Part shown: in pieces, positions 3,056 to 59,627 of the stretch
Layout: each line of letters opens with the position of its first letter
Position numbering within the stretch: the stretch's first letter is position 1
NCBI GenBank assembly: GCA_944392265.1
Contig: CALXWC010000006.1
Coordinates: 133-64,132 of the forward strand
Length of the DNA: 64,000 bases
From: an uncultured Alphaproteobacteria bacterium
Lineage (GTDB): Bacteria; Pseudomonadota; Alphaproteobacteria; RF32; CAG-239
Direction: 5' to 3'
Program-made: the position numbers and the translations under genes
Notes under the pieces: model-generated
Told to the model about the DNA's origin: nothing
The model's input: the letters and a program-made list of their open reading frames with translations, nothing else
The model's database searches: none

Positions 3056-3091
3056 AAAGTCTTGTATATTCTTGTACAAGGCTTTTTTTTG
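3056..3091 (+). terminator. rho-independent terminator
   Basis: GTCTTGTA..TACAAGGC stem followed by an 8-T run just after the stop at 3048. Confidence 0.6.
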
Positions 3092-4690: not shown

Positions 4691-4708
4691 AATTATTGAT
4701 TAACTTGT

Positions 4709-4746
4709 AAAAGCCGTTATAAAAAATAACGGCTTTTATTTTTTTA
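4709..4746 (+). terminator. rho-independent terminator
   Basis: AAAAGCCGTTATaaaaaATAACGGCTTTT followed by a T-rich tract. Confidence 0.75.
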
Positions 4747-4755
4747 GGGGAAATC

Positions 4756-5241
4756 ATGTTAAAAAATTTATTTGCAAAAACAAACAACAAATTACAAAAC
4801 TGGCTGCAATATATGAAGAAAAAAGTATGGCTTCCGATGCAAAGAAAATATAAATCGCCGCACTATCTGGCCCGCTCAAATGCTATTGGTATGGGCTTGG
4901 CCTTTGCACCCTTCCCCGGACAAATTCCTGTTGTTGTTGCTCTATGGATGATATGCAAAAGAACCAATTTTCGTTTTAGTTTATCAATTTCCGTTGCGTG
5001 GACATTTATCTCTAACGTGTTTACAAATCTCCCATTATTTTATCTTTATTACATAACCGGAAACCTGTTGTTAGGCGCAGAAAACAATTTATCTTATAAT
5101 CAGTGGCAAAATATGTTTGGGCAAAATTTTGAAGAAGCCATAAAAGTTCTTGGCAGCAGATTTTTACTCGGAAGCTTATTTTATATGATTATATTTGGTT
5201 GCTTGGGATATTTCTTAGCTTTAAGAAAACAAAAAAACTAA
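4756..5241 (+). CDS. DUF2062-like membrane protein
   Basis: 161 aa. RSNAIGMGLAFAPFPGQIPVVVAL and the following hydrophobic segments resemble the DUF2062 family pattern. This is recalled from memory, not searched. Confidence 0.45.
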   Translation: MLKNLFAKTNNKLQNWLQYMKKKVWLPMQRKYKSPHYLARSNAIGMGLAFAPFPGQIPVVVALWMICKRTNFRFSLSISVAWTFISNVFTNLPLFYLYYITGNLLLGAENNLSYNQWQNMFGQNFEEAIKVLGSRFLLGSLFYMIIFGCLGYFLALRKQKN

Positions 5242-5879
5242 AAGCTTGTCTTGTCTTCCAACTTATCATAACGTTTATGAATACATTGAATGGCGGTTTT
5301 GTGCACACCTTGCGTAATGTCATAATAAACAAAGCGCCCCTCTTTTCTTGAAGAAAGGAAACCATCTTCTTTCAAACGCTTAAGATACTGAGAAACTTTG
5401 AGCTGTTCACTATCAATTCCTTTAATAATATCAGACACATTGCTCTCGCCATTAAGCGTTAAAAACTCCAAAATTCGCATCTTATCAAAATTAGCAAAAA
5501 GCTTAATTCTGTTTGCTACCATCAGCGTAAAATCTTTGGGCAATAATGCTTTTTCGGAAAGATAATAAAAACTGTCTGTCATATAGGCAAAAAGCTTGCG
5601 AATACATTCAAAAATACTAGCCGGATATTCTTCATATATTTCATAATAAACAAAGATTCCTTTGCGTTTGGTTTTAACCAAATTTGCATCACGCAATTTT
5701 TTTAGGCTTTGAGAAACAAAGATTTGTTCTTCATTCAAGCTCTTAGCCAAAGCAGAAACGGAAGTTGGCCCATAGACATCCAAATATTCCAATATTCGCA
5801 AACGCAACGGATGAGAAATATATCCAATCCCGCGTACAGCTTTTTTCATAATCTCTATGGGCAACTGTTTTTCCGTCAT
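5238..5879 (-). CDS. ArsR/SmtB-family regulator with two tandem winged-HTH domains
   Basis: Two internally similar halves: HPLRLRILEYL..VSALAKSL..VSQSLKKLRDANLV..KGIFVYYEI and DKMRILEFL..VSDIIKGI..VSQYLKRLKEDGFL..EGRFVYYDI. Confidence 0.7.
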   Translation of the reverse strand: MTEKQLPIEIMKKAVRGIGYISHPLRLRILEYLDVYGPTSVSALAKSLNEEQIFVSQSLKKLRDANLVKTKRKGIFVYYEIYEEYPASIFECIRKLFAYMTDSFYYLSEKALLPKDFTLMVANRIKLFANFDKMRILEFLTLNGESNVSDIIKGIDSEQLKVSQYLKRLKEDGFLSSRKEGRFVYYDITQGVHKTAIQCIHKRYDKLEDKTSF

Positions 5880-5894
5880 CTGTCAAACTCTCGT

Positions 5895-6257
5895 TTATTT
5901 TAAATAAGGTTTTACCAAAGTATCAAACTTTTTCTCATAGGCTTCTGACCAGCCCATCATATAATCATCGCCAAAGGCAAACAGTGGCGTTCCGACCATT
6001 TGACCCAGATTATATTTTTTAGCAGCCTTAAATAAAAGCTTGTAACCATCCGGTGTTTGAACATTTATCTTTTCCATTTGCAAATCCGGATATTTTTTAT
6101 TGATATAATCTTGAGCATGATGGCAATGCGGACAATAATCAGAATAGAAAAAATAGATTTTATTATTAGCAATTTCAGAATCAATTTTTGCAGCCTTTAA
6201 TTCAAGTCCAACAAAAACACACAAAGCTAAAACCAATAAACCGATAATTTTTTTCAT
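5895..6257 (-). CDS. secreted thioredoxin-fold oxidoreductase (CPHC active site)
   Basis: 120 aa. Signal peptide MKKIIGLLVLALCVFVGLELKA. YCPHCHH is a DsbA-type CxxC motif in a glutaredoxin-sized fold. Confidence 0.6.
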   Translation of the reverse strand: MKKIIGLLVLALCVFVGLELKAAKIDSEIANNKIYFFYSDYCPHCHHAQDYINKKYPDLQMEKINVQTPDGYKLLFKAAKKYNLGQMVGTPLFAFGDDYMMGWSEAYEKKFDTLVKPYLK

Positions 6258-6267
6258 AGTCTTTATC

Positions 6268-6846
6268 CTATTCTATGCAACAATCGACTGCTTTTCTCAC
6301 AAAAGCTTTCATTTTTGCCAAGGTTCCTGTTTTTTCTTCTTGAGGTTGAGCCACAACTTCTGCGGATTCTTCAATTTTTTTGGAAAGCTTTTTAATATCC
6401 TCTGTTTTATCTTCCAACCATTTAACATCATCCACATTGAGCATATTCATATTCAAGCCCCAGAATAAACAATACAATTCATAAGCTTGGTCAAATAATT
6501 TATAAGCTTCTTTAGGATGATTAAGAGATTGTTGCTTTGTTCCAACTTCCATCAAGCGCATGGATGAAGCCAATAAATGCTTTGAAATGCACCATACTTC
6601 TCCCTCATATGCCGGAATAACTTTTTGCATTAATTCTTTACGCATTTCTCTAATATTTTGAATCAAATCATAAAAAGAAGTTTTACCAGTTTTTGCGCCG
6701 GAAAATACCAAATGTTCTTCAATGCTGATAAGATTCATAATTGCAATAGTCAAATCTTGATCTGAAGACAAATCTTTAGGGTTAACTTTTTTAGAACTGT
6801 CAATTTTTTCAACAAATTCTTTAACGCTTTCAATTTTTTTCATCAC
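6268..6846 (-). CDS. hypothetical protein ending in DCCIE
   Basis: 192 aa, helical and cytoplasmic-looking, with a C-terminal vicinal Cys pair. First gene of the apparent operon 6846 to 5238. Confidence 0.5.
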   Translation of the reverse strand: MMKKIESVKEFVEKIDSSKKVNPKDLSSDQDLTIAIMNLISIEEHLVFSGAKTGKTSFYDLIQNIREMRKELMQKVIPAYEGEVWCISKHLLASSMRLMEVGTKQQSLNHPKEAYKLFDQAYELYCLFWGLNMNMLNVDDVKWLEDKTEDIKKLSKKIEESAEVVAQPQEEKTGTLAKMKAFVRKAVDCCIE

Positions 6847-6874
6847 ACTTCTCCAAATAGTAAATCTTACACAT

Positions 6875-6904
6875 ATTATATTTGTAATATATAAAAATTG
6901 TCAA
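6875..6904 (-). promoter_or_regulatory. sigma70-like promoter for the 6846-5238 operon
   Basis: The reverse strand reads TTGACA (6904-6899), an 18-nt spacer, then TATAAT (6880-6875), about 30 nt upstream of the ATG at 6846. Confidence 0.5.
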
Positions 6905-6934
6905 GTATTAAATTGCAATATTGAATAAATTTAC

Positions 6935-7473
6935 ACATAAAAAAAAGCACCTTTTCCAAGGTGCTTTTCTTAAAACTGGGGCGAACGATCGGGCTGGAGA
7001 AAAAAATAATTTCCGGTGGAAATTATTTTGACGACAGGCGCAGATTTGTTAGCTTTAAGGAACGCGACAGCGCATCCGAAAAAGCGTTACAAATCAAGTG
7101 ACCGCAGCGAGTTAGAGTTTTTTTTGTAAAACTCTTACGAGCCAGACGAACCTTGGTTCGAGCCCGTCTCTGATACATAAAAAAAGCACCTTTTCTAAGG
7201 TGCTTTTCTTAAAACTGGGGCGAACGATCGGGCTGGAGGAAAAAATAATTTCCGGTGGAAATTATTTTGACGACAGGCGCAGATTTGTTAGCTTTAAGGA
7301 AAGCAACAGCGCATCCGAAAAAGCGTTACAAATCAAGTGACCGCAGCGAGTTAGAGTTTTTTTGTAAAACTCTTACGAGCCAGACGAACCTTGGTTCGAG
7401 CCCGTCTCTGATACACAAAAAAAAGCACCTTTTCCAAGGTGCTTTTCTTAAAACTGGGGCGAACGATCGGGCT
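6935..7473. repeat. tandem repeat, ~2.2 copies of a ~238-240 bp unit ending inside tRNA-His
   Basis: Units start near 6935, 7175 and 7413. Each contains the hairpin AAAAGCACCTTttccAAGGTGCTTTT and the 19-nt string tggggcgaacgatcgggct (6977-6995, 7216-7234, 7455-7473). Full units add ~180 bp with further hairpins. By manual alignment, copies 1 and 2 differ by about four substitutions and two homopolymer-length changes. Confidence 0.9.
7415..7447 (-). terminator. rho-independent terminator of tRNA-His (repeated at ~6940-6970 and ~7180-7210)
   Basis: On the reverse strand, AAAAGCACCTTggaaAAGGTGCTTTT is followed by a T-run, beginning 8 nt after the tRNA CCA end. Confidence 0.8.
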
Positions 7474-7531
7474 CGAACCGACGACAACCGGTACCACAAA
7501 CCGGGGCTCTACCAACTGAGCTACGTTCGCC
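7455..7531 (-). tRNA. tRNA-His (anticodon GTG) with encoded G-1 and 3' CCA
   Basis: Manual cloverleaf on the reverse strand: G(-1) GCGAACG TA GCTC AGTTGGTA GAGC C CCGGT TTGTGGT ACCGG TTGTC GTCGG TTCGAGC CCGAT CGTTCGC C CCA. All stems pair, the anticodon loop is TT-GTG-GT, and G-1 pairs with C73. Confidence 0.93.
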
Positions 7532-7683
7532 ATTAACAGAAGTGCTTTTACTAAAAAAAATAATCAAAGTCAAGTAATATTTTATGAAAAAAATTAACAA
7601 TTTATTTTCATTTTGCATTTATAATATTTTTAATTTTGGTATACAGAAGCGTCAAATCAATCGAATCTAGCAAGGTAAATAAG

Positions 7684-8880
7684 ATGAATAACAAGAAGAT
7701 ATCCATAGTAAAAACAAGTATTTGCAGCTTTATATTGGGCATTATGGCTATAAGTAACGCCCATGCAAGCGTATCTTCTATTCTTATTGATGCAGAAACC
7801 GGAAAAGTATTATCAGAAAGCAATGCCGATGAAAGACGTTATCCGGCATCTTTGACCAAGCTCATGACCTTGTATATAACTTTTGACGCATTAGAAAACG
7901 GCATCATCAAATGGGATGACAAATTGCCTGTTTCTCGTAAAGCTGCCAATATGGCTCCTTCCAAAATCGGTGTTAAAGCAGGAGAAAAAATCAGCGTTAA
8001 AGACGCTGTTATGGCATTAATTGTTAAATCTGCCAATGACTGCGCCGTTGTTTTGGCAGAAGCTTTAGGATATTCTGAAGAAAACTTTGCCAAAACCATG
8101 ACACATGTTGCCAAAGAACTTGGCATGAAAGACACCACATTTTACAATGCTTCCGGATTACCAAACCGCAATCAAAAAACCACAGCTCGTGATATGGCTC
8201 TTTTAGGCGGTGCGTTATATCATCACTTTCCACAATATTACAAACTTTTTTCCACCAGAAAATTCACTTATAAAGGTAGAACCATTTATACCCATAACCA
8301 TCTTTTGAAAAATTTCAAAGGAGCAGACGGCATGAAAACCGGTTTTACCAACGCAGCCGGATTTAACATTGTGACTTCAGCCCACAGAGACGGAAATCGC
8401 GTTATTGCCGTAACCATGGGACACAGAATGTTAAAACAAAGAGATAAAAAAGTTGCTTCTTTAATGGAAAAAGGCTTACAAAAACTTGCCTTGAACCAAA
8501 CTCAAGAAGAAATAAAAGTTGCTCAAGAACAAAACAGCTACAAAAATGAAGTAAAAGAACAAATTGCCGATAATAGCTTAACGGTAAATAACAGCAACGA
8601 GATTTACAATTGGGGTGTTCAGGTCGGAGCATTTTCAAATTATGCCAAAGCCAGAAATTATGCACAAAACATCAAAGAAAAAATTGCTTCACAATCAGAG
8701 CAAACAATCGTTGATGTAGAGCCGATTCAAAACGGTGGCGCAGTTGTTTATCGCTCCAAAATAATCGGTTTTGAGAAAAAAGAAGCAAAAAACTTGTGCA
8801 ACCACTTGAAAAAATCACACAAATCTTGCATAGTCATAACTGTAAACAATTCGGAACTGACTTTAGCTAATAAACTCTAA
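7684..8880 (+). CDS. D-alanyl-D-alanine carboxypeptidase (PBP5/6 class) with C-terminal SPOR domain
   Basis: SxxK (ASLTKLMT), SxN (KSANDC) and KTG (MKTGFT) motifs. Signal peptide from the ATG at 7684 (MNNKKISIV..AHA). The C-terminal WGVQVGAFSNYAKARNYA..YRSKIIGFEKKEAKNLC is SPOR-like. The track start at 7636 is probably too early. Confidence 0.85.
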   Translation: MNNKKISIVKTSICSFILGIMAISNAHASVSSILIDAETGKVLSESNADERRYPASLTKLMTLYITFDALENGIIKWDDKLPVSRKAANMAPSKIGVKAGEKISVKDAVMALIVKSANDCAVVLAEALGYSEENFAKTMTHVAKELGMKDTTFYNASGLPNRNQKTTARDMALLGGALYHHFPQYYKLFSTRKFTYKGRTIYTHNHLLKNFKGADGMKTGFTNAAGFNIVTSAHRDGNRVIAVTMGHRMLKQRDKKVASLMEKGLQKLALNQTQEEIKVAQEQNSYKNEVKEQIADNSLTVNNSNEIYNWGVQVGAFSNYAKARNYAQNIKEKIASQSEQTIVDVEPIQNGGAVVYRSKIIGFEKKEAKNLCNHLKKSHKSCIVITVNNSELTLANKL

Positions 8881-9692
8881 TGACACAAGATATCAATACA
8901 AAAAAAGCACATATCATTGTAATCAGCAATGAAAAAGGCGGCACGGGAAAATCCACAATATCTATGCATCTGGCCATAAAACTGATGCAAGAAGGTTTCA
9001 GTGTGGCAACTTTTGACTTGGATGGACGCCAAGGCAGTTTATCCAAATACATTGAAAACAGACGCAAATTTTGTGAACAACAAAACATTAATTTACCGAT
9101 TCCCGAGCATACAAAGATATCTCCTGAAGAAAATCCCTATTTACATGCTCAAGCCAGAGATTCTTTAGCATCTCAGATTCGTCAAAAAAGCAACTCTTAT
9201 GATGCAATCATTTTAGATACTCCCGGTACAAAGAATTACCTGTTTGAAGAAGCTCATAAATATGCTGATACGGTAATTACCCCGATTTCAGATAGCTTAA
9301 TAGACTTAAATGTCATTGCCGATATTGATTATCAAACCAACCGCGTATTAAAACCGGGTCATTATTCCAACTTTATCTGGGATATCAAAAAATATATGGC
9401 CTCCCAAGGCAAACCTTACTTAAACTGGATTGTAACCGGCAACCGTTTATCCAGCTTCAACTCCAAAAACAAAACAGCAATTTTTGCTCATTTGGAACGT
9501 TTGTCCAAGATATATGGCTTCAGATTATTTTCCGGCTTAAAAGACCGTGTTATATATAAAGAGCTCTTTTTGGAAGGTTTAACGGTTTTAGACATGGGTA
9601 CACCGGCGCTAAAATGCAAAATGACCGTATCCCACATTGCCGCCAAAAGAGAAATCAATGCTCTTGCCGAATTTATATCTCCGGAAGAATAA
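8880..9692 (+). CDS. mipZ: division-plane positioning ATPase MipZ (ParA/MinD superfamily)
   Basis: IVISNEKGGTGKSTISMHLA (deviant Walker A), DLDGRQGSLSKYIENRR and GLKDRVIYKELFLEGLTVLDM closely follow my recollection of Caulobacter MipZ. The ATG overlaps the upstream stop (TAATG). Confidence 0.8.
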   Translation: MTQDINTKKAHIIVISNEKGGTGKSTISMHLAIKLMQEGFSVATFDLDGRQGSLSKYIENRRKFCEQQNINLPIPEHTKISPEENPYLHAQARDSLASQIRQKSNSYDAIILDTPGTKNYLFEEAHKYADTVITPISDSLIDLNVIADIDYQTNRVLKPGHYSNFIWDIKKYMASQGKPYLNWIVTGNRLSSFNSKNKTAIFAHLERLSKIYGFRLFSGLKDRVIYKELFLEGLTVLDMGTPALKCKMTVSHIAAKREINALAEFISPEE

Positions 9693-19555: not shown

Positions 19556-20284
19556 CTAACTTATCTTATCAAACAATCTGTCCCAACGAATTTTTTTGGG
19601 CCATGTCCAAGGCAAATACCAAGCACCCTCATCATTATGAGAATAAAATAAAAAGCGTGCTTTTCCGATTAAATTTTCAGCAGGAACAAAACCAACACTG
19701 ACACGACTATCATCAGATTGATCTCTGTTATCTCCCATCATAAAATAGTTATCTTTAGGGATGGTTACTTCAGGCATATCATCAACCATTTCGAAGTCTG
19801 AAACTTCTATAATATTGTGCTTTTTACCTTCAGGCAAAGTCTCAATATATTGGTTAAATCTTTTAGCATTTCCATTTTCGTCTCTTAAAACAAAATCTTC
19901 AATTTTTTCACGTTCAAGCATTTTTCCGTTAATATACAAACGTCCTTTTTCCATCTTGATTTTATCACCCGGAAGTCCGATAACACGCTTGATAAAGTCT
20001 GTTGAATTATCTTGAGGAAACTTAAATACAACTACATCTCCTCTTTGTGGTCTATCATCCCAGATTCTACCATCAAACAATGGTAAGCTGAATGGGAAAG
20101 AGTGCTTGGAATATCCATATGTATATTTTGAAACAAAAAGATAATCCCCAACATACAAGGTCGGATACATTGAACCTGACGGAATACGAAATGGTTCAAA
20201 TAAAAATGTTCTGATAACCAATGCAATAAAAATAGCAATAACAACTGTTTTTATTGTTTCTAAAATGCCTTCATCTTTTTCCAT
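19556..20284 (-). CDS. lepB: signal peptidase I
   Basis: SGSMYPTL (catalytic Ser), KRVIGLPGDKI (catalytic Lys box) and GDNRDQSDDSR. AGAGG RBS before the ATG at 20284 (the track TTG at 20305 is less likely). Confidence 0.9.
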   Translation of the reverse strand: MEKDEGILETIKTVVIAIFIALVIRTFLFEPFRIPSGSMYPTLYVGDYLFVSKYTYGYSKHSFPFSLPLFDGRIWDDRPQRGDVVVFKFPQDNSTDFIKRVIGLPGDKIKMEKGRLYINGKMLEREKIEDFVLRDENGNAKRFNQYIETLPEGKKHNIIEVSDFEMVDDMPEVTIPKDNYFMMGDNRDQSDDSRVSVGFVPAENLIGKARFLFYSHNDEGAWYLPWTWPKKIRWDRLFDKIS

Positions 20285-20429
20285 ATTTACCTCTATTAAA
20301 AACAAGAAAAGACACCTCTTTAGAAATTATTTTATCTCAAAAAAATATCTAACGAGGCATCACTTCTCACATACTACTCATAATTTCCGAGATAGCAACA
20401 AAAATTTATCCAATTAACAAAGTTTTAGA

Positions 20430-21080
20430 TTATTTTTTTCTAATTTGACCAATCAGGTTTTCAAAAGGAATAAGTCCCAAACCGCCACGACTGTCTTCAG
20501 ATTGATCGCGGTTATCTCCCATAAAGAAATAATATCCCTCGGGAACTTGAAATTCTTCGATATTATCAAGAAATTTATCATCAGAAATTTCAATAATCGA
20601 ATGTGTTACGCCATTAGGTAAAGTTTCTTTATAATGAGAAAAATTAAAAGTCTTATTGCGTCTGTCTGTATATGAATATTCTCCCACATATGTTCTGGGT
20701 ACAATTTTACCATTAATATACAATCGCCCATTTTCAAGCTTAATTTTATCATTCGGTAAACCGATTAAACGCTTCACAAACGCCCATCTTGCTTTGGGAT
20801 GATTTGAACGAAAGACAATAATATCTCCTCTTTTGGGTTGCTTTGGGAAAAGTCTTATTCCTTCTAAAAAAGATATGTTGAACGGAAGGGTAAATCGTGA
20901 ATATCCATAGTCAAATTTGGTCACAAAATCCCATTCTTCGGAAGACATTGTCGGCAACATCGAAACCGAAAAAATTTTATATTTTTCAAAAACAAAAACT
21001 TTTAAGATAAAAGATATAAAGACACCTAAGAAAACCACTCTGAAAATTTGCCACAATCGAAATTTCCAGCTTTTCTTCAT
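20430..21080 (-). CDS. signal peptidase I paralog
   Basis: SVSMLPTM, KRLIGLPNDKI and GDNRDQSEDSR: the Ser/Lys boxes are retained. It is shorter at the C-terminus than the neighbouring copy. Its start overlaps the acpS stop. Confidence 0.8.
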   Translation of the reverse strand: MKKSWKFRLWQIFRVVFLGVFISFILKVFVFEKYKIFSVSMLPTMSSEEWDFVTKFDYGYSRFTLPFNISFLEGIRLFPKQPKRGDIIVFRSNHPKARWAFVKRLIGLPNDKIKLENGRLYINGKIVPRTYVGEYSYTDRRNKTFNFSHYKETLPNGVTHSIIEISDDKFLDNIEEFQVPEGYYFFMGDNRDQSEDSRGGLGLIPFENLIGQIRKK

Positions 21081-48753: not shown

Positions 48754-49542
48754 TTAGAAACCTAAATCCAAGTTATTCCATCCTTGGCTCTTTTTCTCTT
48801 TTTCTTTTGTTTCTTCTTTTTTCTTCTTGGTCATCCATACACCTTTGGCCTTTTCTTTTTCGCTGACCAATTCTTTTTGCTCTTTGGTTTGTGGAACACC
48901 TATCGGCAATAATTGGTTAAGTAAAGCCGGAGAAACAAAGTTTGTTTTATTTTTTTCAAAAGTATCGACCATAGCGTCAATCACTTGAGCTGCCGGACGA
49001 GCGTTAAAGACTTTAACTCCGTTTGGAGAATAAACAGCAAAAGAATAACAAGGAGCAGAGAGCATCACATCTGTCACATCCACACCACGAACAAAACGCA
49101 AAACTACACGAGGCTGCATCATACATTCTTCACGCACATTAAACAAAACATTTTTATCATCCATAAAAAGTTGAGACAAAACATTTTGCTTAATATCATC
49201 TTTAATCACACCGCAAAATGCCGTTAATGCCATACCATCAATGGTATAGCCTTCATAATCATCAGAGAGGACGCTAACTTCATAACAAAAAATCTGCTCA
49301 GCTTGGGCAATATTTTTCCAAGCTGTATTTCCAATAGCTTGTTTAATTTCCAACAAGATTTCTTTTTTAGGAGTATCTTTCTTTTCTTGACGGACCTCTT
49401 CCCTACGCCAAGATTCCTTATCTTGTTTAAAAGAAGTAATTCCATCTTCCGTATCAGTAAAAAAATCATCATTTCCCAAAGCATTAAACGGAAATGAGAA
49501 ACACAATAAAGAAAGTATAAAAATTTTTTTAATCATATTCAT
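48754..49542 (-). CDS. hypothetical secreted protein
   Basis: 262 aa with signal peptide MIKKIFILSLLCFSFPFNALG and a Lys/Glu-rich C-terminal tail. No family recognised. Confidence 0.55.
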   Translation of the reverse strand: MNMIKKIFILSLLCFSFPFNALGNDDFFTDTEDGITSFKQDKESWRREEVRQEKKDTPKKEILLEIKQAIGNTAWKNIAQAEQIFCYEVSVLSDDYEGYTIDGMALTAFCGVIKDDIKQNVLSQLFMDDKNVLFNVREECMMQPRVVLRFVRGVDVTDVMLSAPCYSFAVYSPNGVKVFNARPAAQVIDAMVDTFEKNKTNFVSPALLNQLLPIGVPQTKEQKELVSEKEKAKGVWMTKKKKEETKEKEKKSQGWNNLDLGF

Positions 49543-49763: not shown

Positions 49764-50531
49764 ATGTATATTTGGGTAATTTTGGCAACATTTATGCTGG
49801 CATTGTACTCTTTCAATTTATCGTATCGTTCAGATATCAGAGAAATTGAATTAGAGCCGCTTGCGCGTTCCTTAATTTCCAAAGTTCTTATAAAACAACA
49901 AGCCGGTGGGCAATATATAAAAGCACACACACCTCCGTATGCCAAAATTACAAATGAAGAGGGTATACCAGTTTCAGCCAGCAGCGTCACATATTCACCG
50001 GGAGTCCTAAGCATAGAACAATTTACACCCGAAAACGGAGGAAGTTATCTCCCCTATGGTTTTGTAGACGACGAAAACGTTATAACCGAAATTTATTGCA
50101 TTGATGAAGCAGGAACATCTTCTGTTCCATGTAGCGAAGAGAATTCTAAACCTTATTTACTGACATATACCGTTTTACCGCAAAAATGGTTAAGTATTAA
50201 AACAGGTGTTCCAAGTAATGACTTTTTAAATGCAATGAAAGATATGGTTGGCGATGATCCCGGATTTGGATATCCTATTTGCCTAAAATATATTGAAGGA
50301 GATTCTGAAGAGAAAAAATGTGACCAACTCGGATTAAGAAGCCGTACGGGAACATATAAGATTGGTTATGATGAAGACGGGAATTCACTCGTTAGTGAAG
50401 CTTTGGCTTTTGAAATACCTAAATATATTGCAAACAACGGGACATTTGCAGAAACTTGTAACAATTCCTCAAATAACGATATGTGCTTGGCATATATATA
50501 CAAAATAAGCATAAAAAAATATACGGAATAA
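49764..50531 (+). CDS. hypothetical membrane-anchored, Cys-containing protein (partner of the giant pilin-like protein)
   Basis: GAGGT RBS. It starts directly with the hydrophobic helix MYIWVILATFMLALYSF. Six Cys in the soluble part suggest an extracytoplasmic location. It ends 39 nt upstream of the next gene. Confidence 0.6.
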   Translation: MYIWVILATFMLALYSFNLSYRSDIREIELEPLARSLISKVLIKQQAGGQYIKAHTPPYAKITNEEGIPVSASSVTYSPGVLSIEQFTPENGGSYLPYGFVDDENVITEIYCIDEAGTSSVPCSEENSKPYLLTYTVLPQKWLSIKTGVPSNDFLNAMKDMVGDDPGFGYPICLKYIEGDSEEKKCDQLGLRSRTGTYKIGYDEDGNSLVSEALAFEIPKYIANNGTFAETCNNSSNNDMCLAYIYKISIKKYTE

Positions 50532-50570
50532 TTTTTATAGGAAGACAAAAGATATTTAAGGAGAAAACCG

Positions 50571-53500
50571 ATGTTAAAAGAAATTAATAAGTTAAGATCA
50601 CAAAGAGGCAGCCTGATGGTTGAAGCTTTGGCAATGCTTGGATTAATTTCCATGGTAACTCCTGTTGTATATAAAAAAGCGGCCGAACGCACAAATGAAA
50701 TGCAAGATATTAACGCAGCAAGCCAAGTCCGAACCGTTGTTAACGGAATTGATGCCTATTTAAGAGATAACTACTCTGTTATCACCAGCGGAGGAACCGT
50801 AACCTCTAATTCCGCGTCTGAATCCTATAAAGAAGTAAACTATGCTGATTTTGGCTTTAATGATAGTTCTACAGAAACCAAGACATCAGCTCCGATTAAT
50901 ATTGAACACTTTAGAGATTATTTGCCAATTGGTTTCCAAAACCAAGGTAAAATATTTAAAGATTTACAAGTTGTAATTAAAGAAACAAAAGACCCTGAAG
51001 GTACAAGAAAAGCACTTACAACCATTCTTGTTGCCCACCCCAAAGATGGTGGACAAGGCTTCACAAAAATCAGAACATCTCGTATTGCATCCATGATTGG
51101 AACAAACGGTGGTTATGTTGACGGAGACAAAGCAACCGGTGTACAAGGTGTTTGGCAAATTCCGACAGATGAATTTCCAGATGAAATTAAAAACAATTTA
51201 AAAGACGGAACTATTGTTGCTACATCTCTTGAATCTGTAGCAGATGGCACGGGAGGAGGAACCAACGTATTATACCGTGTTGCTATGCCTGGTCGTGAAG
51301 ATTTAAACATGATGGAAACCACATTAAACATGGGTGGAAAGAACATTTCTAACATTACCAATTTAATTGCGGATACTCAAAATAATACAGTTAATATCAA
51401 GGGAAACGCAGATACAGAAACAACTCTTAATGTTACTGGTGATGGTGTATTTTCTTCTAGCTTAAAAGCTGCCAGAGAAAACTTCTTAGCAGAAGAAGGG
51501 TATACTCAAATTAAACAAAAACTTTACGTTGGTGACAGTATAGAAGATTCTTCAGCAAAATTCATGGTAGATGGCAACACAGGAAGCATAAGTGCTCTTG
51601 GAGGAAATTTATATGCCGGATATTATAACGGTAACCCATATCTGCGCTTTGGATCAAACGCCTCTCCTCGATTACTCAAAGTAGATGAAAGCCAAGCTTC
51701 GTTTATGGAAGATAAAGTTACGATAGATGCTGCCGGCAATACAGACATTGTCGGAGATACGAGTATTGATGGTACTTTAGCAGCTGTCCAATCTGGTGGT
51801 GAAAATAAATATGCATTTACAACAGACGCTGAAGAAGCTCAATTCTATGATGAAACACTTCATGTATTAAAAGATGCCAGAAGAGTAGATATAGGTAATG
51901 AAGGAAATCCAGCAAATTTAAGAGTATACGGAGAAACTATACTCAATGATTTAACCGTAGAACAAGACTTTAAAGCGGGACATGTTGCAGGTACAAGTGA
52001 CTACGGACTCAATGTAAATGGCGGCACAGGAAATGTCTTAATCAAAAAAGATTTAGAGGTTAACGGTAGTGGTACATTTAACGACTTGTTTTTTGTAAGA
52101 GATCAAGGCGGTAACGATGTATTAACAGTTAATAGCGCAGCAAATGGAAAAACCTATATTAAAGAATTAGCTGTCGGTAACAGTTCTGCAAACAATTATC
52201 AAGGCGGCACAGATAGAGGCACACACATATCCCTCTCTGGTCAAAAAACGATTCTAGCTGGAGGAGATGAATTCACAATTGGAACGACCGGTGGCGGAAT
52301 CAAAATAAAAGCAGAAGATCAAAAGCTTTCACTTGGAAGTGGCGTTCGAACAGATCAAGACAAAAACGAGTTGGTAATCACTTCTAACCAAGCTCAACTA
52401 AATAGTGCTCTAAGAATTAGGACTGATGATCAAGGAGCTGGTATCTTAGCCATAAACAATGAAACAGACTCCAGTAAATTTTATCAGGATAAAGATGGCT
52501 ATACAATGTCAACTTCAGATTACCCTATTTACATTCGTAAAGGTGCTATTGAGATTATGCCAAATGAAGGAACAGGAACTTCCTCTGATTCAGAAAGATT
52601 TGGCTATATCAAAGCCGATCGTTTTGTCAGCAATAACAGATTCGTCGGTTCAGGCAACAACGCTCAATTTCCAGACGGAACCGCTAGCATAGATGGTAAT
52701 ACGGTTAGTAACCCATATACATATGAGGTAAATCCGGCATATACATCAATGATGAATGATATTAAGTTATCTTCACGCGGCGGCGCACGCTTAAGCGATA
52801 TATTACCAGACTTTATCAACAAAGGTATCTACGTTCTGGATAATACTTACGAAGGAAACAGCGACTGGGAAACAGCACAATTTAAGAGTGACGGCGTACT
52901 TCAAGGGTTAAGTGATTGCTCTGATGTCAACTGTGATACTTCTCCTTGGTTAGGTTTTATTCCTACCCCTCATTGTCCGCCAAACTATGCTGCTGTGGCT
53001 ACAATTACACCGATTCGCTTTAATATGGCGCAAGCAGGTATTGCTATTCAAGGCGATGGAACATTCCCTGGAGGATCATCACCAAGAGTTACGATTGCTC
53101 AAACCAACAACCCAAAAAATGCGGAATTAAAAATCAGTGAAAACGGTGGTACTGCGGTTGATAGCTATCTTCCTTTTGCCTATATAACAGATAACAGTCA
53201 GGACCCGAAAAATTCATACAGCATTGCTGGAAGCGGTATGCAGTCTCCTACATATTGGGTAAATTTTGTCAATCACCCATATAACTTCCAAATTAACACA
53301 TGGCTGAACACAACCATAAAAAAATATTACCAAGATTCTAAATTCCAAGGATGGCATGGTATTATGGGCTTTATTTATCCGGCTCAACAATATGCAGAAA
53401 TTCAAGGAAAATCTCAGAGTGATTATAAATCAGATGATATTATTTGGAACCTATTTCCGGTTCGTCCGCAAGAGCTCTCTGCAATTGCAACAATATACTG

Positions 53501-53654
53501 CTACTTTGATAGAGAACAATACAGCACACCTATGGTTGATCCTTATTTACCACACAATGCCGCAATTGGTTCTATCAGATACGGACATGACGCACAAAAT
53601 TCTAAATCTGTGAACTACAATGATCCGACATTAAACTATGACAACCAATGGTAA
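50571..53654 (+). CDS. giant (1027 aa) protein with type IV prepilin-like N-terminal signal and repetitive solenoid-like body
   Basis: AGGAG RBS. The N-terminus is MLKEINKLRSQRG/SLMVEALAMLGLISMVTPVVY: a basic leader, Gly at -1, Glu at +5, then a hydrophobic helix. The G/N/T/D-rich body has recurring N-x-x-[IV]-x-G...[IL]-x-[VG] strands. All four Cys lie in the last ~270 aa. A strong terminator follows. Confidence 0.6.
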   Translation: MLKEINKLRSQRGSLMVEALAMLGLISMVTPVVYKKAAERTNEMQDINAASQVRTVVNGIDAYLRDNYSVITSGGTVTSNSASESYKEVNYADFGFNDSSTETKTSAPINIEHFRDYLPIGFQNQGKIFKDLQVVIKETKDPEGTRKALTTILVAHPKDGGQGFTKIRTSRIASMIGTNGGYVDGDKATGVQGVWQIPTDEFPDEIKNNLKDGTIVATSLESVADGTGGGTNVLYRVAMPGREDLNMMETTLNMGGKNISNITNLIADTQNNTVNIKGNADTETTLNVTGDGVFSSSLKAARENFLAEEGYTQIKQKLYVGDSIEDSSAKFMVDGNTGSISALGGNLYAGYYNGNPYLRFGSNASPRLLKVDESQASFMEDKVTIDAAGNTDIVGDTSIDGTLAAVQSGGENKYAFTTDAEEAQFYDETLHVLKDARRVDIGNEGNPANLRVYGETILNDLTVEQDFKAGHVAGTSDYGLNVNGGTGNVLIKKDLEVNGSGTFNDLFFVRDQGGNDVLTVNSAANGKTYIKELAVGNSSANNYQGGTDRGTHISLSGQKTILAGGDEFTIGTTGGGIKIKAEDQKLSLGSGVRTDQDKNELVITSNQAQLNSALRIRTDDQGAGILAINNETDSSKFYQDKDGYTMSTSDYPIYIRKGAIEIMPNEGTGTSSDSERFGYIKADRFVSNNRFVGSGNNAQFPDGTASIDGNTVSNPYTYEVNPAYTSMMNDIKLSSRGGARLSDILPDFINKGIYVLDNTYEGNSDWETAQFKSDGVLQGLSDCSDVNCDTSPWLGFIPTPHCPPNYAAVATITPIRFNMAQAGIAIQGDGTFPGGSSPRVTIAQTNNPKNAELKISENGGTAVDSYLPFAYITDNSQDPKNSYSIAGSGMQSPTYWVNFVNHPYNFQINTWLNTTIKKYYQDSKFQGWHGIMGFIYPAQQYAEIQGKSQSDYKSDDIIWNLFPVRPQELSAIATIYCYFDREQYSTPMVDPYLPHNAAIGSIRYGHDAQNSKSVNYNDPTLNYDNQW

Positions 53655-53663: not shown

Positions 53664-53710
53664 CTCACAAAAAAAAGAACCGATGAAATGTCGGTTCTTT
53701 TTTTTGTGAG
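53664..53710 (+). terminator. rho-independent terminator
   Basis: A perfect 20-bp inverted repeat, CTCACAAAAAAAAGAACCGAtgaaatgTCGGTTCTTTTTTTTGTGAG. Confidence 0.85.
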
Positions 53711-53814: not shown

Positions 53815-54336
53815 ATGGCTGACTTGGACGACTTTGACGCATTTGAAGAAGAGGAAGAACAATCATCAAATATTAATAAAAAGAAGATTGTTATTTTTCT
53901 TTTGCCTATTTTAATTGCCATCGGCATTGCTGTTGGAATGTATCATACATTTGGAACTTCGGACCAAAATCAAGAAGGCCGCCCCTATAAAATATTAAAT
54001 GAGACAGAAAACACACAGCAACCCCTAATTTTTTACGATTTACCCGAAATCAATACCCCACTAAAAAAGACTTCGGAAGCAAATGAAGTTTTACGCTTAA
54101 ATATGGCAATAGAGCTGACCAATCGTGAAGATATTCCAAAGATAGAAATTTTACTGCCCCGCTTTTACGATATCATTTTGGCGCATATAAACGGATTAAC
54201 GAATGCCGAAATTTCTGGTACGGAAGGCATGTACTGGTTAAAGCAAGAATTGTTATATCGATTGCGTTTAGCAGCAGCACCCATCAACATTGCTGACATT
54301 GATATAAAAAGTATAGAGATTCAAAAGAACATCTAA
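53815..54336 (+). CDS. fliL: flagellar basal body-associated protein FliL
   Basis: Acidic N-terminus, a single TM (IVIFLLPILIAIGIAVG) and a C-terminal FliL-like region (VLRLNMAIEL..ILLPRFYDIIL..LKQELLYRL). Upstream of fliM. Confidence 0.75.
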   Translation: MADLDDFDAFEEEEEQSSNINKKKIVIFLLPILIAIGIAVGMYHTFGTSDQNQEGRPYKILNETENTQQPLIFYDLPEINTPLKKTSEANEVLRLNMAIELTNREDIPKIEILLPRFYDIILAHINGLTNAEISGTEGMYWLKQELLYRLRLAAAPINIADIDIKSIEIQKNI

Positions 54337-54337
54337 G

Positions 54338-55420
54338 TTGGATAAGGAAAGAAAAGTGGCTGAAGAAAACAACAAATCAAAATCACCAAACAACAATTGG
54401 GCTGATAAGATAGAAATACAGGAAGATACCTCTTTTTCAGACGAAGATGGCGGAAAAATTTTAAATCAAGAAGAAATTGATTCTCTTCTGGGCTACCATT
54501 CAGATGAAAATGACGAAAATGGTCTGCATGCTGTTAGAACAGGTGTTCATGCAATTTTAAACAGCAGTTCTGTTTCTTATGAACGCTTGCCAATGTTAGA
54601 AATTGTATTTGACCGCCTCATTCGTCTAATGGCCACTTCTCTTAGAAACTTTACCCAAGATAACGTGGAAGTTTCTTTGGAATCAATTGAATCGATGCGT
54701 TTTGGAGAATATTTAGACGCGCTCACACTTCCAACATTGTTAACCGTATTCAAAGCGGAAGAATGGGATAACTATGGTCTGATTTCTTTAGACAGTTCTT
54801 TGGTATATTCAATCGTTGACGTTCTGTTAGGTGGAAGACGAGGTACGGCGGCCATGCGCATAGAAGGTCGTCCTTATACCACAATTGAATTAAACTTGGT
54901 AAAAGATATGCTTCAATTGGTCTTAAATGATTTATCAACAGCCTTTGACCCTATCACATCTGTTAACTTCTCCTACGATAGGACAGAGACCAACCCCAGA
55001 TTTGCCACCATTTCACGCCTATCTAACGCTGTTATTGTTGCACGCTTACGTGTAGATATGGAAGATCGCGGCGGAAAAATAGACTTAATGATTCCTTATG
55101 CAACGCTAGAACCCGTAAGAGAATTGTTGCTCCAAATGTTTATGGGAGAAAGATTCGGTCGAGACGCCATTTGGGAAAACCATTTAATGGAACAATTATG
55201 GGAAACCGACGTTGAATTAAGGGCGGTTATGAAAGACGTTGAAGTTAAGTTTGGTGAAATTTCTTCATGGAAAGAAGGATCTTTTCTACCTTTAGAGATG
55301 TTACCCAATGATGATATATCTCTTTTGTGCGGTGATGTTCCTCTGCTTGTCGGTTCAATGGGCCGAAAAGGAGACAAGGTCGTTGTCAAAGTAAAAGGAA
55401 AGGCTGAAAAAAATGGATAA
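54338..55420 (+). CDS. fliM: flagellar motor switch protein FliM
   Basis: N-terminal LNQEEIDSLLG (CheY-P binding-type motif), a middle domain (EIVFDRLIRLMATSLRNF) and a C-terminal SpoA-like segment. TTG start. Confidence 0.85.
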   Translation: MDKERKVAEENNKSKSPNNNWADKIEIQEDTSFSDEDGGKILNQEEIDSLLGYHSDENDENGLHAVRTGVHAILNSSSVSYERLPMLEIVFDRLIRLMATSLRNFTQDNVEVSLESIESMRFGEYLDALTLPTLLTVFKAEEWDNYGLISLDSSLVYSIVDVLLGGRRGTAAMRIEGRPYTTIELNLVKDMLQLVLNDLSTAFDPITSVNFSYDRTETNPRFATISRLSNAVIVARLRVDMEDRGGKIDLMIPYATLEPVRELLLQMFMGERFGRDAIWENHLMEQLWETDVELRAVMKDVEVKFGEISSWKEGSFLPLEMLPNDDISLLCGDVPLLVGSMGRKGDKVVVKVKGKAEKNG

Positions 55421-55853
55421 TTTAGATTTATTCATCAATTTGGTTGTTATAGCATTATTAATTCCGACAATTATCTACGTTTATCAGTTAGATAAAAACC
55501 TAAATTTAATGCGCGAAAATCAAAGTGAATTATTCAAATTGATTGAAGCTTTGAATGAAGCCACTTACAAAGCTGAAAACAGCATTCCGAAATTAAAAAC
55601 CGTTACGGAAAAATCAAGTAACAACTTAAAAGAAGTTGTCGACAGCGCCAAAGAATTAAAAAATGATTTGATGTTTATTAATGAACGTGCAGACAATTTG
55701 GCAGACAGATTGGAAGGCGCCATCAAAAACAGCCGTCAAATCAAAGAAGATACGACAAACATAAATTCTGTTGCAGAAAAAAAGAATGATATTTTAGACG
55801 AGCGTTCCGAAGCAGAAATGGAACTCTTAAAAGCTCTTCGTTCTATAAAATAA
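55413..55853 (+). CDS. hypothetical flagellar-cluster protein (N-terminal TM plus coiled coil)
   Basis: 146 aa. Overlaps the fliM end by 8 nt. One TM helix followed by a coiled-coil-like sequence. Possibly the DUF6468-type protein seen in alphaproteobacterial flagellar loci (from memory, unverified). Confidence 0.5.
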   Translation: MDNLDLFINLVVIALLIPTIIYVYQLDKNLNLMRENQSELFKLIEALNEATYKAENSIPKLKTVTEKSSNNLKEVVDSAKELKNDLMFINERADNLADRLEGAIKNSRQIKEDTTNINSVAEKKNDILDERSEAEMELLKALRSIK

Positions 55854-55869
55854 AAAGGATAAAGGCAAA

Positions 55870-56520
55870 ATGAATATAAAAAAATCTAAATTTAAGGTTC
55901 GTTTACTCCCCTTATTTATTTTTGTGGGAGTGTTATCTTTATCCATCAAAATCAATTATGTATACAACACCATTATCAATCGAGAATTACCAAAAATCAG
56001 TATTTCTCAAAACAAAGCATTGGCTGAAGAAAAAGAAAAAGCAGAGACACAACAACTCAACAACATCTTAAACGGCAATGCTCAAAATGTTAATACAGGA
56101 AGCTTTCAAAACAATTCTGCTTTCACACAATCAGAAATCAACATTTTGCAAGAATTAGCCGAAAGAAGAGAAGCTCTCGATGTTCGTTCTGAAGAAATTG
56201 ATAAAAAAGCTTTGCAGTTAAAAGTGGCTGAAAGTGAAATAGATAAAAAACTTGCTCAATTAAAAGTCTATGAAGAAAAATTGCAAAAACTCATCAATCA
56301 ATATAACGAACAAGAAAGAGCCCAATTGGCAACTTTGGTAAAAATGTATTCAACAATGAAACCCAAAGATGCAGCTCGCATATTTAATACATTTGAAATA
56401 GATATTTTGGTTGCCATTTTAAGAGAAATGAAACCAAGCTCATCTTCAGCTATTTTATCCCAAATGGATTCGATTAAAGCAAGAGAAGTAACGACAGCAT
56501 TAATCGGTAAAAACGTATAG
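55870..56520 (+). CDS. MotE-like / MgtE_N-type flagellar protein
   Basis: N-terminal anchor, a coiled coil, and a C-terminal MKPKDAARIFNTFEIDILVAILREMKPSSSSAILSQMD resembling the MgtE intracellular N-domain motif of MotE/FlbB-type proteins. Confidence 0.55.
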   Translation: MNIKKSKFKVRLLPLFIFVGVLSLSIKINYVYNTIINRELPKISISQNKALAEEKEKAETQQLNNILNGNAQNVNTGSFQNNSAFTQSEINILQELAERREALDVRSEEIDKKALQLKVAESEIDKKLAQLKVYEEKLQKLINQYNEQERAQLATLVKMYSTMKPKDAARIFNTFEIDILVAILREMKPSSSSAILSQMDSIKAREVTTALIGKNV

Positions 56521-56528
56521 AGGTTTCT

Positions 56529-59500
56529 GTGGTTATTAAGTTGAAAAATAAATATATTTATTATCTTTGGATAAGCTTGTTGCTTATCCTTAGCATTTGT
56601 TTTTCATCAATGGAAGTCTCAGCAAAACTTCTTCAAATTAATAATTACGGCAATAAAAAGATTATGGTATTGGATATAAAAGACGATACTGATTACAGCG
56701 TAAATATTAAGGATAATTTATTGAACTTAAACTTACCTAACGGCGCTGAAAATATTTATAATAATTTAAATGCTGATTTTGTTTTGGATAAAAAACTCTC
56801 TCAAAACAAAAAAGAGCTTATAATCACACTTGATAACTATTATACCGTTAAGACCAAAAACCAAGACGGATACTTAATTTTAGAGTTAAATCGTATCAAT
56901 ACCCCAAAAGCACCGATAAAAAGCATAAACAAAATCTTTGCTGATTGTATTATCACGGATAAAGAAACGACCGTTGTATTTCAATACAAAGAAAAACCTA
57001 GATACTCCGTTATTTCAGAAAAAGACGCCACAATTGTTTCTTTCTTAAGCAATATAAACCTCCAAGCTCCGAATTTGGGTAAATGCTTTAGTAAAAAAAT
57101 TGAAAAGAGCCCTAATAAATTTGGCGGCTTAGATATCAGATTGCCCAACACATTAATAAAATCGGATGAAATGAACAATCAATTACGTCTGCAATTTGCC
57201 CTTGGCTCACAACCGTTGCCTAATGCAAACAACACGCCGATAAAAACTTTACCTCGTGACAATGAGTTAAATACCTCAAAAAAAGATGAAGTCATCAGCT
57301 TGGCTTTTCCTTGGAACAATGAAGTGGGTTTGAGTGTTTTCACCAGAGGAAAATATATTTGGGTTGCATTCGACCATGTAAGAAAATTAGACATTGAAGA
57401 CCTCAAACGTCAAAGCAACTTATTGGTTCAAGATATCATCCAGCTACCTTCGACCAAAGCCACAATTTTAAGGATAACTCCAAGAAAAGATGTTAAAATC
57501 GGTTTACGTCAAGAGGGTTTACTCTGGATTATCGATTTGTATACGCACGATATTGAATATCAAACCAATGAACTTCCCGTATTTGTTCAATATGACAGTA
57601 TGAAACAATCATATCTTTATATTCCGACCACGACGGGAGGAAATGTTATTTCCATCATAGACCCAGAAATCGGTGATGTTATTTTAATGGGAACCAACAC
57701 CGCCATAAAAGAAGCTATCAATGAAGATTATAAATATCAAGATTTTGAAATATTAAAATCTAAACAAGGTTTTGCACTCGTACCAAATGCTTCTGATGTT
57801 ACCTTAACCAGAGGCATCAGCGGATTTAGTATTAAGGGTGAAAAAAGAGGATTAAACATATCTGACAATTTAGATTCTCTTAAAAGGCAACAAAGTCTTA
57901 AGCTTGAAGCCAGCGCAGACGTCTTTGGCCTCAAACTTCCGGAACAATTATTTAATATGACCTTTACGGAAGCACAACAACAATTGCAAGAAGATATCAA
58001 AAAATCTAAAGGTGCGGCAAAAATTGAAGCAAAATTAAGACTGGCCAAATATTATTTAGGCATGGGACTTGGCACGGAAGCTTTAAGAGAGCTTGAAGAA
58101 ATAAAAGACAAAATAAAACCTGAAACATATTTTGCATTAACCGGTATCGGAAACTTTTTGTTGCGTCGCTATGATCAAGCTATGGATGATTTTTCTCAAC
58201 AAGGTTTGGAAAATAACAATCAAGCTGTATTTTGGCGTGTTTTGGCCTCTTCTGCATTAAATTATAAGCAAGAAAACAATATCATTTTATTATCTTTTAT
58301 ATCTGTTATCAGAGATTATCCGCAAGAATTAAAAGAGCGCATTGCCTTGGTGGCCGCTGAAACAGCCATAAAATCTTATGATGATATATCTACACAAAAC
58401 TTTATGGATATTTTGAAAAATTCAAAAGATAAAGAAGCCAGAAAATCTCATATTTTGTATTTGAACGCTCAAAAATTTAATGCGCAAGGATACCCAAACA
58501 ATGCAATGAGAGAATATTCAGCTGCACTTTTGTATAAATCTCAAAAGTACAATGCATTAGCGCGCTATGAAAAAGTAAATTTAGCCCTTAAACTCAACAC
58601 CATTTCTTACAGCAATGCAATTGCAGAAATGCAAAAATTGCGTTTTGCATGGGGTGAGCCCAAGTTTAAATTAATGCTACTCAACAAATTAGCCGAAGTT
58701 TATGTCTTGAACAAAGAATACAACAAAGCTCTTGCTGCATATCAAGAAAGCTTAAATTTAGCATCAAGCAATCAAGATGAAGCTATTTTAGATAAAATGG
58801 TGAAGTTGTTTGAAGATATATATATGAATAACCGTGCAGATGAAATGCCTCCATTAAAAGCCATTGCTTTGTATAAAGATTATGAATGGCTTGGCCCAAG
58901 AAGCAAATATTATACCGAAATTGCGCAAAAAGTTGCAGACAGAATGGTTGCATCAGACTTACTTGAAAGCGCCGCTAATATCTTAAAAGAGCAATTACGA
59001 TTAATCAATTTGGATAATGAACAAAAAGCCCAAATTGGAGCCAGACTTGCCCTCATTTACCTTTTTGAGGATGACAATATGGCCGCATTAAAAATTTTAG
59101 ACAACACGGATGCTCAAGATATTTCAGCCAATCAGCAAAAATATCGCAAGATAATAAAAGCACAAGCCTTATCTAATATGAAAAGAACAGATGAAGCTCT
59201 GGATTTGTTAAAAGATGATACCAGTAAAAATGCCTTGTTGCTAAAAACAGAAATATATTGGAAATCTGAACAATGGAGCAAAGCTGCAGATACTATTAAA
59301 TTCTTGATAGAAAAGCCTAAAAAAGGTCAAAAACTTTCTCAAGAACAGATTAATTATATTTTAGATTGGATTTTAGCATTGAAAAAATCCGGTAAGAACA
59401 CTGTGGTTTACAGAATAAGAAACACATTCTTGCCATATTTCAAAGACACCAAACAATATGCAACATTCAATGTCTTAACATCTAATCTTGAGACCAATCG

Positions 59501-59627
59501 TGTGGATATGCAAGCAATCAATCAAGCTGTTGAAAGCATCTCTGCATATAGCGATTTTTCAAAAATCTATAATGATAATTTGCTTAACCAAATTCCCAAG
59601 CAAGTTCCTCTAAAACAGGACAACTAA
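56529..59627 (+). CDS. large (1032 aa) secreted or anchored protein with TPR-like C-terminal half, flagellar-cluster associated
   Basis: GTG start. N-terminal hydrophobic segment [20 protein letters not shown]. The C-terminal half has repeated helical A/Y/L-rich motifs ([33 protein letters not shown]) suggestive of TPR. Confidence 0.55.

Follow-up and report, generated by a model that had tools for sequence, protein, structure and literature searches.

Directly upstream of the flagellar gene fliL, a 64,000-nucleotide (nt) stretch of DNA from an uncultured alphaproteobacterium (contig CALXWC010000006.1; hereafter the window, i.e. the whole stretch that was analysed) carries two genes that raise a question: what is a protein of 1027 amino acids (aa) that begins like a type IV pilin doing beside a flagellar gene, and what is the 255-aa protein encoded just before it? 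A preliminary description of the locus had seen in the pair an orphan, pilin-anchored surface fibre or adhesin module of an unrecognised type, inserted upstream of fliL. Sequence searches, structure prediction and comparison of related loci point to a probable answer. The first 300 residues of the large protein (hereafter the giant) can be traced by homology to PilV, a minor pilin of plasmid-borne type IVb pili, and the giant and its partner probably form an adhesin-bearing complex that sits at the tip of a chromosomal type IVb-like pilus of gut Alphaproteobacteria or primes its assembly. Both open reading frames (ORFs) were found on the same strand with the sequences quoted for them earlier. 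The features of the unit are as follows, AF2 denoting AlphaFold2 models.

49764..50531, + strand: partner gene, 255 aa (ORF list), encoding an apparently leaderless pilin-like protein
50571..53654, + strand: giant gene, 1027 aa (ORF list), whose product starts MLKEINKLRSQRG/SLMVEALAMLGLISMVTPVVY
50558..50563, + strand: ribosome-binding site AAGGAG of the giant gene, seen in the sequence 7 nt 5' of the ATG
50571..50609, + strand: leader peptide MLKEINKLRSQRG of the giant, ending at Gly(-1), a class III-type signal (alignment, motif counts)
50610..51440, + strand: PilV-like pilin module, residues 14-290 of the giant (Pfam PF04917, tblastn, AF2)
51441..52520, + strand: hypervariable, G/N/T/D-rich and beta-rich middle, residues 291-650 of the giant (identity profile, AF2)
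52521..53651, + strand: conserved C-terminal module, residues 651-1027 of the giant (invariant columns)
53664..53710, + strand: intrinsic terminator ending the two-gene unit (perfect inverted repeat, RNA fold)

The PilV-like pilin module of the giant

Residues 78-282 of the giant matched the Pfam family PF04917 (Shufflon_N; E 2.9e-13, 50.5 bits vs a cutoff of 27.5), and residues 1-310 searched alone matched it with E 3e-14. Most giant homologs carry the same precomputed match. Residues 1-310 were also used as a tblastn query against 72,556 plasmids and matched 2267 plasmid records, with up to 97% coverage, 25-29% identity and E-values down to 3e-8. The alignments with plasmid pilV begin at giant residue 2 and, among the matches listed, all annotated ones overlie genes for the 'shufflon system plasmid conjugative transfer pilus tip adhesin PilV'. 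As these matches fall on annotated pilV genes, the pilin-like reading rests on homology beyond a likeness of motifs. Giant residues 1-300, signal included, are thus judged to share ancestry with the constant region of PilV, which is the tip adhesin/minor pilin of IncI-plasmid type IVb pili. The pilin-like character proposed earlier is thereby upheld and the unrecognised type is corrected, the N-terminal module belonging to the known family PF04917.

The class III-type signal is a conserved property of the family and not a chance likeness, as judged from its alignments. The giant combines a short basic leader that ends at Gly(-1) with a Glu at +5 and a stretch of some 20 hydrophobic residues; the partner has neither a leader nor Glu5. 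Among 80 aligned giant homologs, G13, S14 and E18 are conserved in at least 90%, the motif G[ST][LM][LM][VI]E occurs in 75 and conservation is highest over residues 1-50, with 76% identity. The signal was likewise found in 95 of 125 full-length cluster representatives, nearly all others having a G-G-[LM]-M-I-E variant. The leader and Gly of the giant align with those of PilS-type pilins in hhalign, and the AF2 model has a helix at residues 2-66 followed by a sheet, with a predicted local distance difference test score (pLDDT) of 67-84 for residues 41-220.

The comparison with PilV of IncI1/IncI2 plasmids (R64, TP114), which belongs to a conjugative thin pilus, extends to the N-terminal ~300 residues, the signal and the alpha1 helix. 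Both proteins continue from the pilin module into a part that determines binding, by analogy in the case of the giant; the distal part of PilV selects recipient-cell receptors (PMC9045228). The differences are substantial. The giant has 1027 aa as against 413 aa in the PilV of contig L171 (2.4 times) and is chromosomal, lying outside any pilL-V operon with a prepilin peptidase, whereas the PilV of L171 lies within one. It has the canonical Glu5, whereas that PilV reads G/WANLD, and its C-terminal module is conserved, whereas the C-terminal segments of PilV are switched. A search of the giant gene for a shufflon gave the terminator as the only inverted repeat, with no shufflon repeats and no Rci recombinase; fliL comes next. 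As shufflon, operon context and NCBIfam match are all lacking and the size is 2.4 times greater, the giant is not a PilV ortholog; its N-terminal module is a member of PF04917.

Middle, C-terminal module and partner

A conservation profile of the 80 aligned homologs divides the giant into three parts: an N-terminal region of ~290 conserved residues, a hypervariable middle and a strongly conserved C-terminal region of ~375 residues. The middle shows 9-28% identity per 50-residue block and varies in length from 283 to 446 aa across homologs. It is here that the G/N/T/D-rich composition noted earlier resides (G 12.5, N 7.8, T 7.8, D 8.9%). AF2 predicted many short strands at pLDDT 40-70, and self-blastp of residues 271-660 detected no internal repeat at E<=50, nor was a clear periodicity seen; the recurring strand motifs and beta-solenoid of the preliminary description were therefore not confirmed. 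One homolog (P0075) gave a sub-threshold Bactofilin match (25.8 bits vs a cutoff of 27.9) and a weak LbH_EIF2B match (E 0.0079), sub-threshold matches to Bactofilin and the left-handed beta-helix (LbH) being seen in one homolog clade. The middle is presumed to be a stalk or fibre.

The C-terminal module contains long invariant runs (e.g. NPAYTSMM.DIKL..RGGARLSDILPDFINKGIY). Only four Cys occur in it (783, 788, 802 and 977; three conserved), and its earlier description as Cys-rich was not confirmed. The module was searched alone against 1.84 billion representatives at E<=1e-3 and was found in 357 clusters (50% identity), always at the C-terminal end of proteins of 900-1470 aa. Essentially all of the full-length proteins open with the same class III motif. 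The exception, P0408 (966 aa), has a Sec signal and BspA-type LRR_5 repeats (3e-89), followed by the same C-terminal module (E 4e-47, residues 545-909). As it is shared with this leucine-rich repeat (LRR) surface-adhesin architecture, the module can apparently be carried by different surface proteins. No match to the module was found in Pfam or among PDB sequences, and a PDB sequence-profile search with the whole giant family returned nothing at E<=1. The giant thus has the make-up of a modular pilin, i.e. a pilin module fused to non-pilin modules, as indicated by the three-part profile and by the single occurrence of the C-terminal module on an LRR protein.

The partner gene was located directly upstream of the giant gene in all 67 related loci with enough upstream DNA. 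In the window the gap between the partner stop codon and the giant gene is 39 nt and contains the AAGGAG; so short a gap is consistent with one operon. The unit ends in the perfect 20-bp terminator reported earlier, whose arms (53664-53683 and 53691-53710) are 20 nt each and 100% complementary, with a 7-nt loop and a predicted RNA free energy of -30 kcal/mol (z = -8.7).

The partner was previously described as a Cys-rich anchored protein. It does have six Cys and a hydrophobic helix from its start, and looks like something more, namely a leaderless pilin-like paralog. In 42 homologs, C112, C123, C232 and C241 are invariant, as is the N-terminus MYIWV.LAT from Met1, with no leader and no Glu5. 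The four invariant Cys indicate that the protein is probably extracytoplasmic, as had been supposed; having no leader, it would need no peptidase. The AF2 model (pLDDT 84.7, predicted template modelling score 0.78) has a helix at residues 2-54 followed by a beta-sheet domain. Alignment of partner and giant N-terminal module profiles by hhalign was colinear over 165 columns (E 2.3e-5, probability 76%) with a common YLPYGF, and paired partner Trp4 with giant Leu15 and partner Leu7 with giant Glu18, i.e. the +5 Glu. On this moderate evidence, the partner and the pilin module of the giant appear to be paralogs, the partner having lost or never had the leader and Glu5.

GspK/PilX-type cap subunits of type II secretion systems and type IVa pili lack Glu5. 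The partner resembles them in having a hydrophobic residue at this place, as expected of the top subunit of a filament (cf. PMC8179133). It differs from them in having no leader at all and in giving neither a sequence match nor a significant fold match to them, its nearest relative being the giant's pilin module.

A further resemblance was seen to the R64-type PilM (145 aa; L171 5691-6128), which starts MGWVILAISMVFF and so recalls the MYIWVILATF of the partner (window 49764-49830), a Q-rich helix coming next in both. A relationship with PilM was considered on the strength of the common start M.WVILA and kept as no more than a lead, the hhalign comparison being non-significant (E 0.01, probability 4%) and PF07419 being found in 0 of the 42 partner homologs.

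A probable tip module on a type IVb-like pilus

The pilus to which the pair might belong was sought in related genomes. In one locus (L061), a 234-residue protein encoded at 7355-8059, 1.2 kb upstream of the partner gene, has the sequence MKYTNESG/RSMVEMLGVLAIIGVL and gave matches to two families of type IVb major pilins, PilS (PF08805, 4e-17) and Bundlin (PF05307, 3e-12). The PilS/bundlin-type family gave at least 7984 matches in the clade, with the signal G/RSMVE. The N-terminus MKYxNExG/RSMVEMLGVLAIIGVLSVGG is nearly invariant, the first 57 residues are almost so, and one member is annotated as 'type 4 pilus major pilin [Alphaproteobacteria bacterium]'. The genes (loci L061, L088, L089, L090, L172, L173 and L176-L181) are multi-copy and scattered singly or in tandem. 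Seven PilS-type pilins from the same sample series as the giant were examined and all lay in housekeeping surroundings, with rplM-rpsI (divergent), RNase E, fructose-bisphosphate aldolase, sodC and ruvC as neighbours; a metagenome scan of 80 pilin loci likewise gave housekeeping neighbourhoods. Contigs that overlap giant loci from related organisms, with 71-75% nucleotide identity, put pilins at an estimated distance of ~15-17 kb from the giant, and two contigs have pilins next to a gyrA with 76.6% identity to that of the window.

Sequences of pilus machinery were sought in the window, its flanks, the orthologous loci and the pilin loci, 2.3 Mb in total. Within the window, no T2SSE ATPase, T2SSF platform protein, secretin or A24 peptidase was detected by Pfam searches of about 50 ORFs, motif scans or tblastn, in agreement with the preliminary description. 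Regular expressions for the Walker A motif of T2SSE and for GxGDxK of A24, run over the 2.3 Mb, matched only UvrA, UvrB and ABC proteins. By tblastn with all 11 R64-type pil operon proteins, only PilV and PilS were matched, plus a fragment of PilR on L169. On this 2-kb rumen metagenome contig, a T2SSF fragment at 31-870 (E 3e-22 to the R64-type PilR) is followed about 1 kb downstream by a pilin start (1838-1975) with 74% identity to the PilS-like N-terminus; it is the only machinery gene found beside any PilS-like pilin. From L061, the overlapping contigs, the pilin loci and L169 together, the lineage is judged to have type IVb-type major pilins with the giant's kind of signal and dispersed pil genes. 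The pair is therefore not the orphan that it was first taken for, since such pilins are encoded in related genomes and once only 1.2 kb away.

With a pilin module preceding a long extracellular part, a fibre or adhesin presented on a pilus is the best reading of the giant. The core of the earlier proposal, a pilin-anchored surface fibre or adhesin module, stands in this form; its description as an orphan insertion does not. A prepilin peptidase would remove the 13-residue leader of the giant at Gly13, and the hydrophobic alpha1 helix with its Glu5 would then dock in the core of a filament whose major pilins are of the PilS/bundlin type. The other ~740 residues would project outward as a fast-evolving, beta-rich stalk topped by the conserved C-terminal module, which is probably a ligand-binding or adhesion module and may bind a conserved ligand. 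The partner, lacking Glu5, would probably sit at the very top of the filament or prime assembly together with the giant. The assembly machinery would be encoded elsewhere in the genome.

Precedents for this arrangement exist in several systems. PilV of TP114 is a large modular minor pilin at the pilus tip (PMC9045228), as are TcpB and CofB (PMC5207764, PMC6048534), and presentation at the tip is a general feature of modular pilins (PMC8179133). TcpB of Vibrio cholerae and CofB of enterotoxigenic Escherichia coli (ETEC) resemble the giant in joining a pilin module to beta-rich domains and in being the one large minor pilin of their system; their tip role and partner-protein binding are documented (PMC5207764, PMC6048534, PMC9565799). 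The giant is about twice their size, has no sequence match to any PDB chain and has a dedicated pilin-like partner gene beside it, whereas the TcpB and CofB operons have none. The modular pilins PilB and PilC of Streptococcus sanguinis share the same design, with a functional module on a pilin module, displayed at the tip. The largest modular pilin in a published survey has 860 residues (PMC8179133), whereas members of the giant family have about 900-1470, and the extra modules of the giant match no catalogued domain.

Several results weigh against a pilus-tip role. The AF2 model of the whole giant has a mean pLDDT of 58, with strand-rich regions of low confidence past the N-terminal sheet, and is weak evidence of fold. 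In a Foldseek search of the PDB with the giant, the minor pilin TcpB of Vibrio cholerae ranked first with a non-significant E of 0.13, and the NCBIfam PilV models gave no match to the giant at E<=0.1. Foldseek found no significant PDB match for the partner, for which searches of Pfam and NCBIfam also returned none, no Pfam family being matched by any of the 42 members; it is for these reasons that the evidence for its paralogy is only moderate. No PilS-type pilin gene was found in the window or its extra flanks. Extending the window through a sister assembly, by 5 kb and by 10 kb (~15 kb of added flank), revealed no pilus machinery, and neither the 78 orthologous loci nor the surroundings of about 90 pilin loci yielded a prepilin peptidase, a T2SSE ATPase or a secretin. 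As none of these three was located, the assembly of the pair into a pilus is inferred. Lastly, a role in a pilus does not account for fliL being the neighbour almost everywhere.

Secretion, the flagellum and the surroundings of the pair

The failure to find a secretin or an ATPase near any member of the family could also mean that the giant is displayed independently of pilus machinery, remaining in the inner membrane or in a pseudopilus of the type II secretion kind, short and periplasmic, with a role in secretion or in the envelope. The leaderless partner, which requires no peptidase, would fit such a role, and type IVb minor pilins are known to mediate secretion as well, TcpB with TcpF and CofB with CofJ (PMC9565799, PMC6048534). 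This alternative is nevertheless unlikely. The many conserved PilS/bundlin-type major pilins of the lineage argue for true pili, a body of ~1000 residues with a hypervariable region is hard to fit into the periplasm, and the homology of the giant is to PilV and not to the GspH-K families.

The genes on either side of the pair are as follows.

48754..49542, - strand: gene of a 262-aa neighbour (Sec signal; Lys-rich tail at the C-terminus), adjoining the pair in most loci
53815..54336, + strand: fliL, first gene of the fliL-fliM-DUF6468-MotE-like-tetratricopeptide repeat (TPR) cluster (Pfam; conserved neighbour)

The giant family comprises at least 276 clusters at 90% identity, all of them without an assigned name, and the pair's family has at least 290 matches in species-representative genomes. 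Every genome match is to an uncultured alphaproteobacterium of the gut, the sources being human, mouse, chicken ('Candidatus Scatocola faecipullorum'), deer and rumen. 'Candidatus Scatocola' is placed in the Rhodospirillales by the NCBI taxonomy; the clade is one that we take to be the GTDB order RF32. The pair, whose homologs co-occur, adjoins fliL in 65 of 69 informative species-level loci. In 51 of these fliL is divergent from the partner gene, with ~230-430 bp between the matches, and in 14 it follows the giant gene in tandem, as in the window, where 104 nt separate the terminator from the fliL start codon. In the remaining four loci the pair has been relocated as a unit away from the fliL-fliM cluster, the 262-aa secreted neighbour staying behind. 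In L077 the relocated pair is 7 kb away from fliK/flgD-like genes; those in two rumen genomes (L050 and L073, about 1-9200) lie directly after a histidine kinase and an lptCAB-rpoN-hpf-ptsN cluster.

The flanks of the pair, PhoU-PHO4 on one side and fliL-fliM-DUF6468-MotE-like-TPR-uvrB on the other, are as syntenic as the pair itself. Since the flanking genes are equally conserved in order, the locus is judged to be old and passed on vertically. Contrary to the preliminary description it is no insertion: its GC content is unremarkable (0.37 vs about 0.36) and it is syntenic across the lineage. The gene content of the window (Pfam, about 50 ORFs) is that of an ordinary alphaproteobacterial chromosome, with MipZ, GcrA, FliR, FlhB, MotA/B, GyrA, UvrA/B and PhoU/PHO4. 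The 262-aa neighbour, which gave no family match and whose orientation varies between loci, is probably not part of the module.

The linkage to fliL is a striking argument for a flagellum-associated accessory, in which the pilin-like N-termini would serve only as inner-membrane anchors of a periplasmic or envelope structure round the basal body, co-opted from a type IV pilus ancestor. Type IV pilus proteins have been co-opted in this way into the motor cage of the Helicobacter pylori flagellum (PMC10823254), which provides a precedent for recruitment. The adjacency to fliL has survived inversion in place, the relocated pairs lie near fliK/flgD-like genes (L077) or beside rpoN (L050, L073), and no pilus machinery was seen in the loci scanned. 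The whole region from PhoU-PHO4 to uvrB is, however, equally syntenic, so that the adjacency may reflect inheritance and not function, and in four genomes the pair has left the fliL-fliM cluster as a unit. Neither a flagellar family match nor a sign of co-transcription was found: no flagellar Pfam domain is present, the strong terminator of the window stands between the giant gene and fliL, and adjacency alone is conserved. Upstream of the partner gene in 43 loci there was no conserved CtrA box and no sigma-54 promoter. The hypervariable middle fits surface exposure better than a place in the motor, and a mere anchor would not need the conserved Gly(-1)/Glu(+5). An accessory of this kind is accordingly regarded as quite improbable. 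More doubtful again is the stronger proposal that the pair is no pilus component at all and represents a pilin-derived module recruited to the flagellar apparatus, with the leaderless protein as anchor and the giant as a fibre assembled beside FliL. If true, it would explain both the persistence of the fliL linkage through inversion in place and the lack of machinery near the pilin-like genes.

Origin from a phage tail-fibre gene, or from a prophage remnant captured beside fliL, is effectively excluded: Foldseek matches to predicted viral structures, among them tail-fibre-like proteins with E down to 3.9e-7, have template modelling (TM) scores <=0.10 and root-mean-square deviations of 17-98 A and so reflect only an extended, beta-rich character, fragments of T4 gp34 appeared among the PDB fold matches only at E 0.3-0.6, no phage genes lie nearby, the position of the pair is stable across species-level genomes and the N-terminus of the giant is that of a pilin and not of a fibre adaptor.

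On the preferred reading of the pair as a pilus-tip complex, PilV-type tip pilins would not be confined to conjugative plasmids and could reach 1000-1470 residues, exceeding the largest modular pilin of the 2021 survey (PMC8179133). A dedicated, leaderless pilin-like partner would be an arrangement without a described counterpart in type IVb pili. The organisms, though uncultured, are common in the guts of humans, livestock and rodents, and literature searches that paired gut Alphaproteobacteria (RF32, CAG-239) with either pili or flagella returned nothing relevant. As a candidate adhesion domain, the C-terminal module would be new and could serve gut colonisation, and the strict linkage to fliL raises the question of coordination between pilus and flagellum.

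Downstream of fliL and fliM, the window encodes at 55413-59627 a DUF6468 protein, a MotE-like protein (weak MgtE_N match) and a 1032-aa protein with one TPR match, to which no flagellar role is assigned. The order fliL-fliM-DUF6468-MotE-like-1032-aa is kept in essentially every related locus, with uvrB directly next. Elsewhere in the window, two tandem genes for signal peptidase I (Peptidase_S26; 19556-21080, - strand) lie upstream of rnc and era. At the contig edge, a full-length gene of the chloramphenicol acetyltransferase family (PF00302, 5e-76) was found at 312-935 on the + strand; the same gene in the sister assembly (L175) adjoins ankyrin-repeat and unannotated genes.

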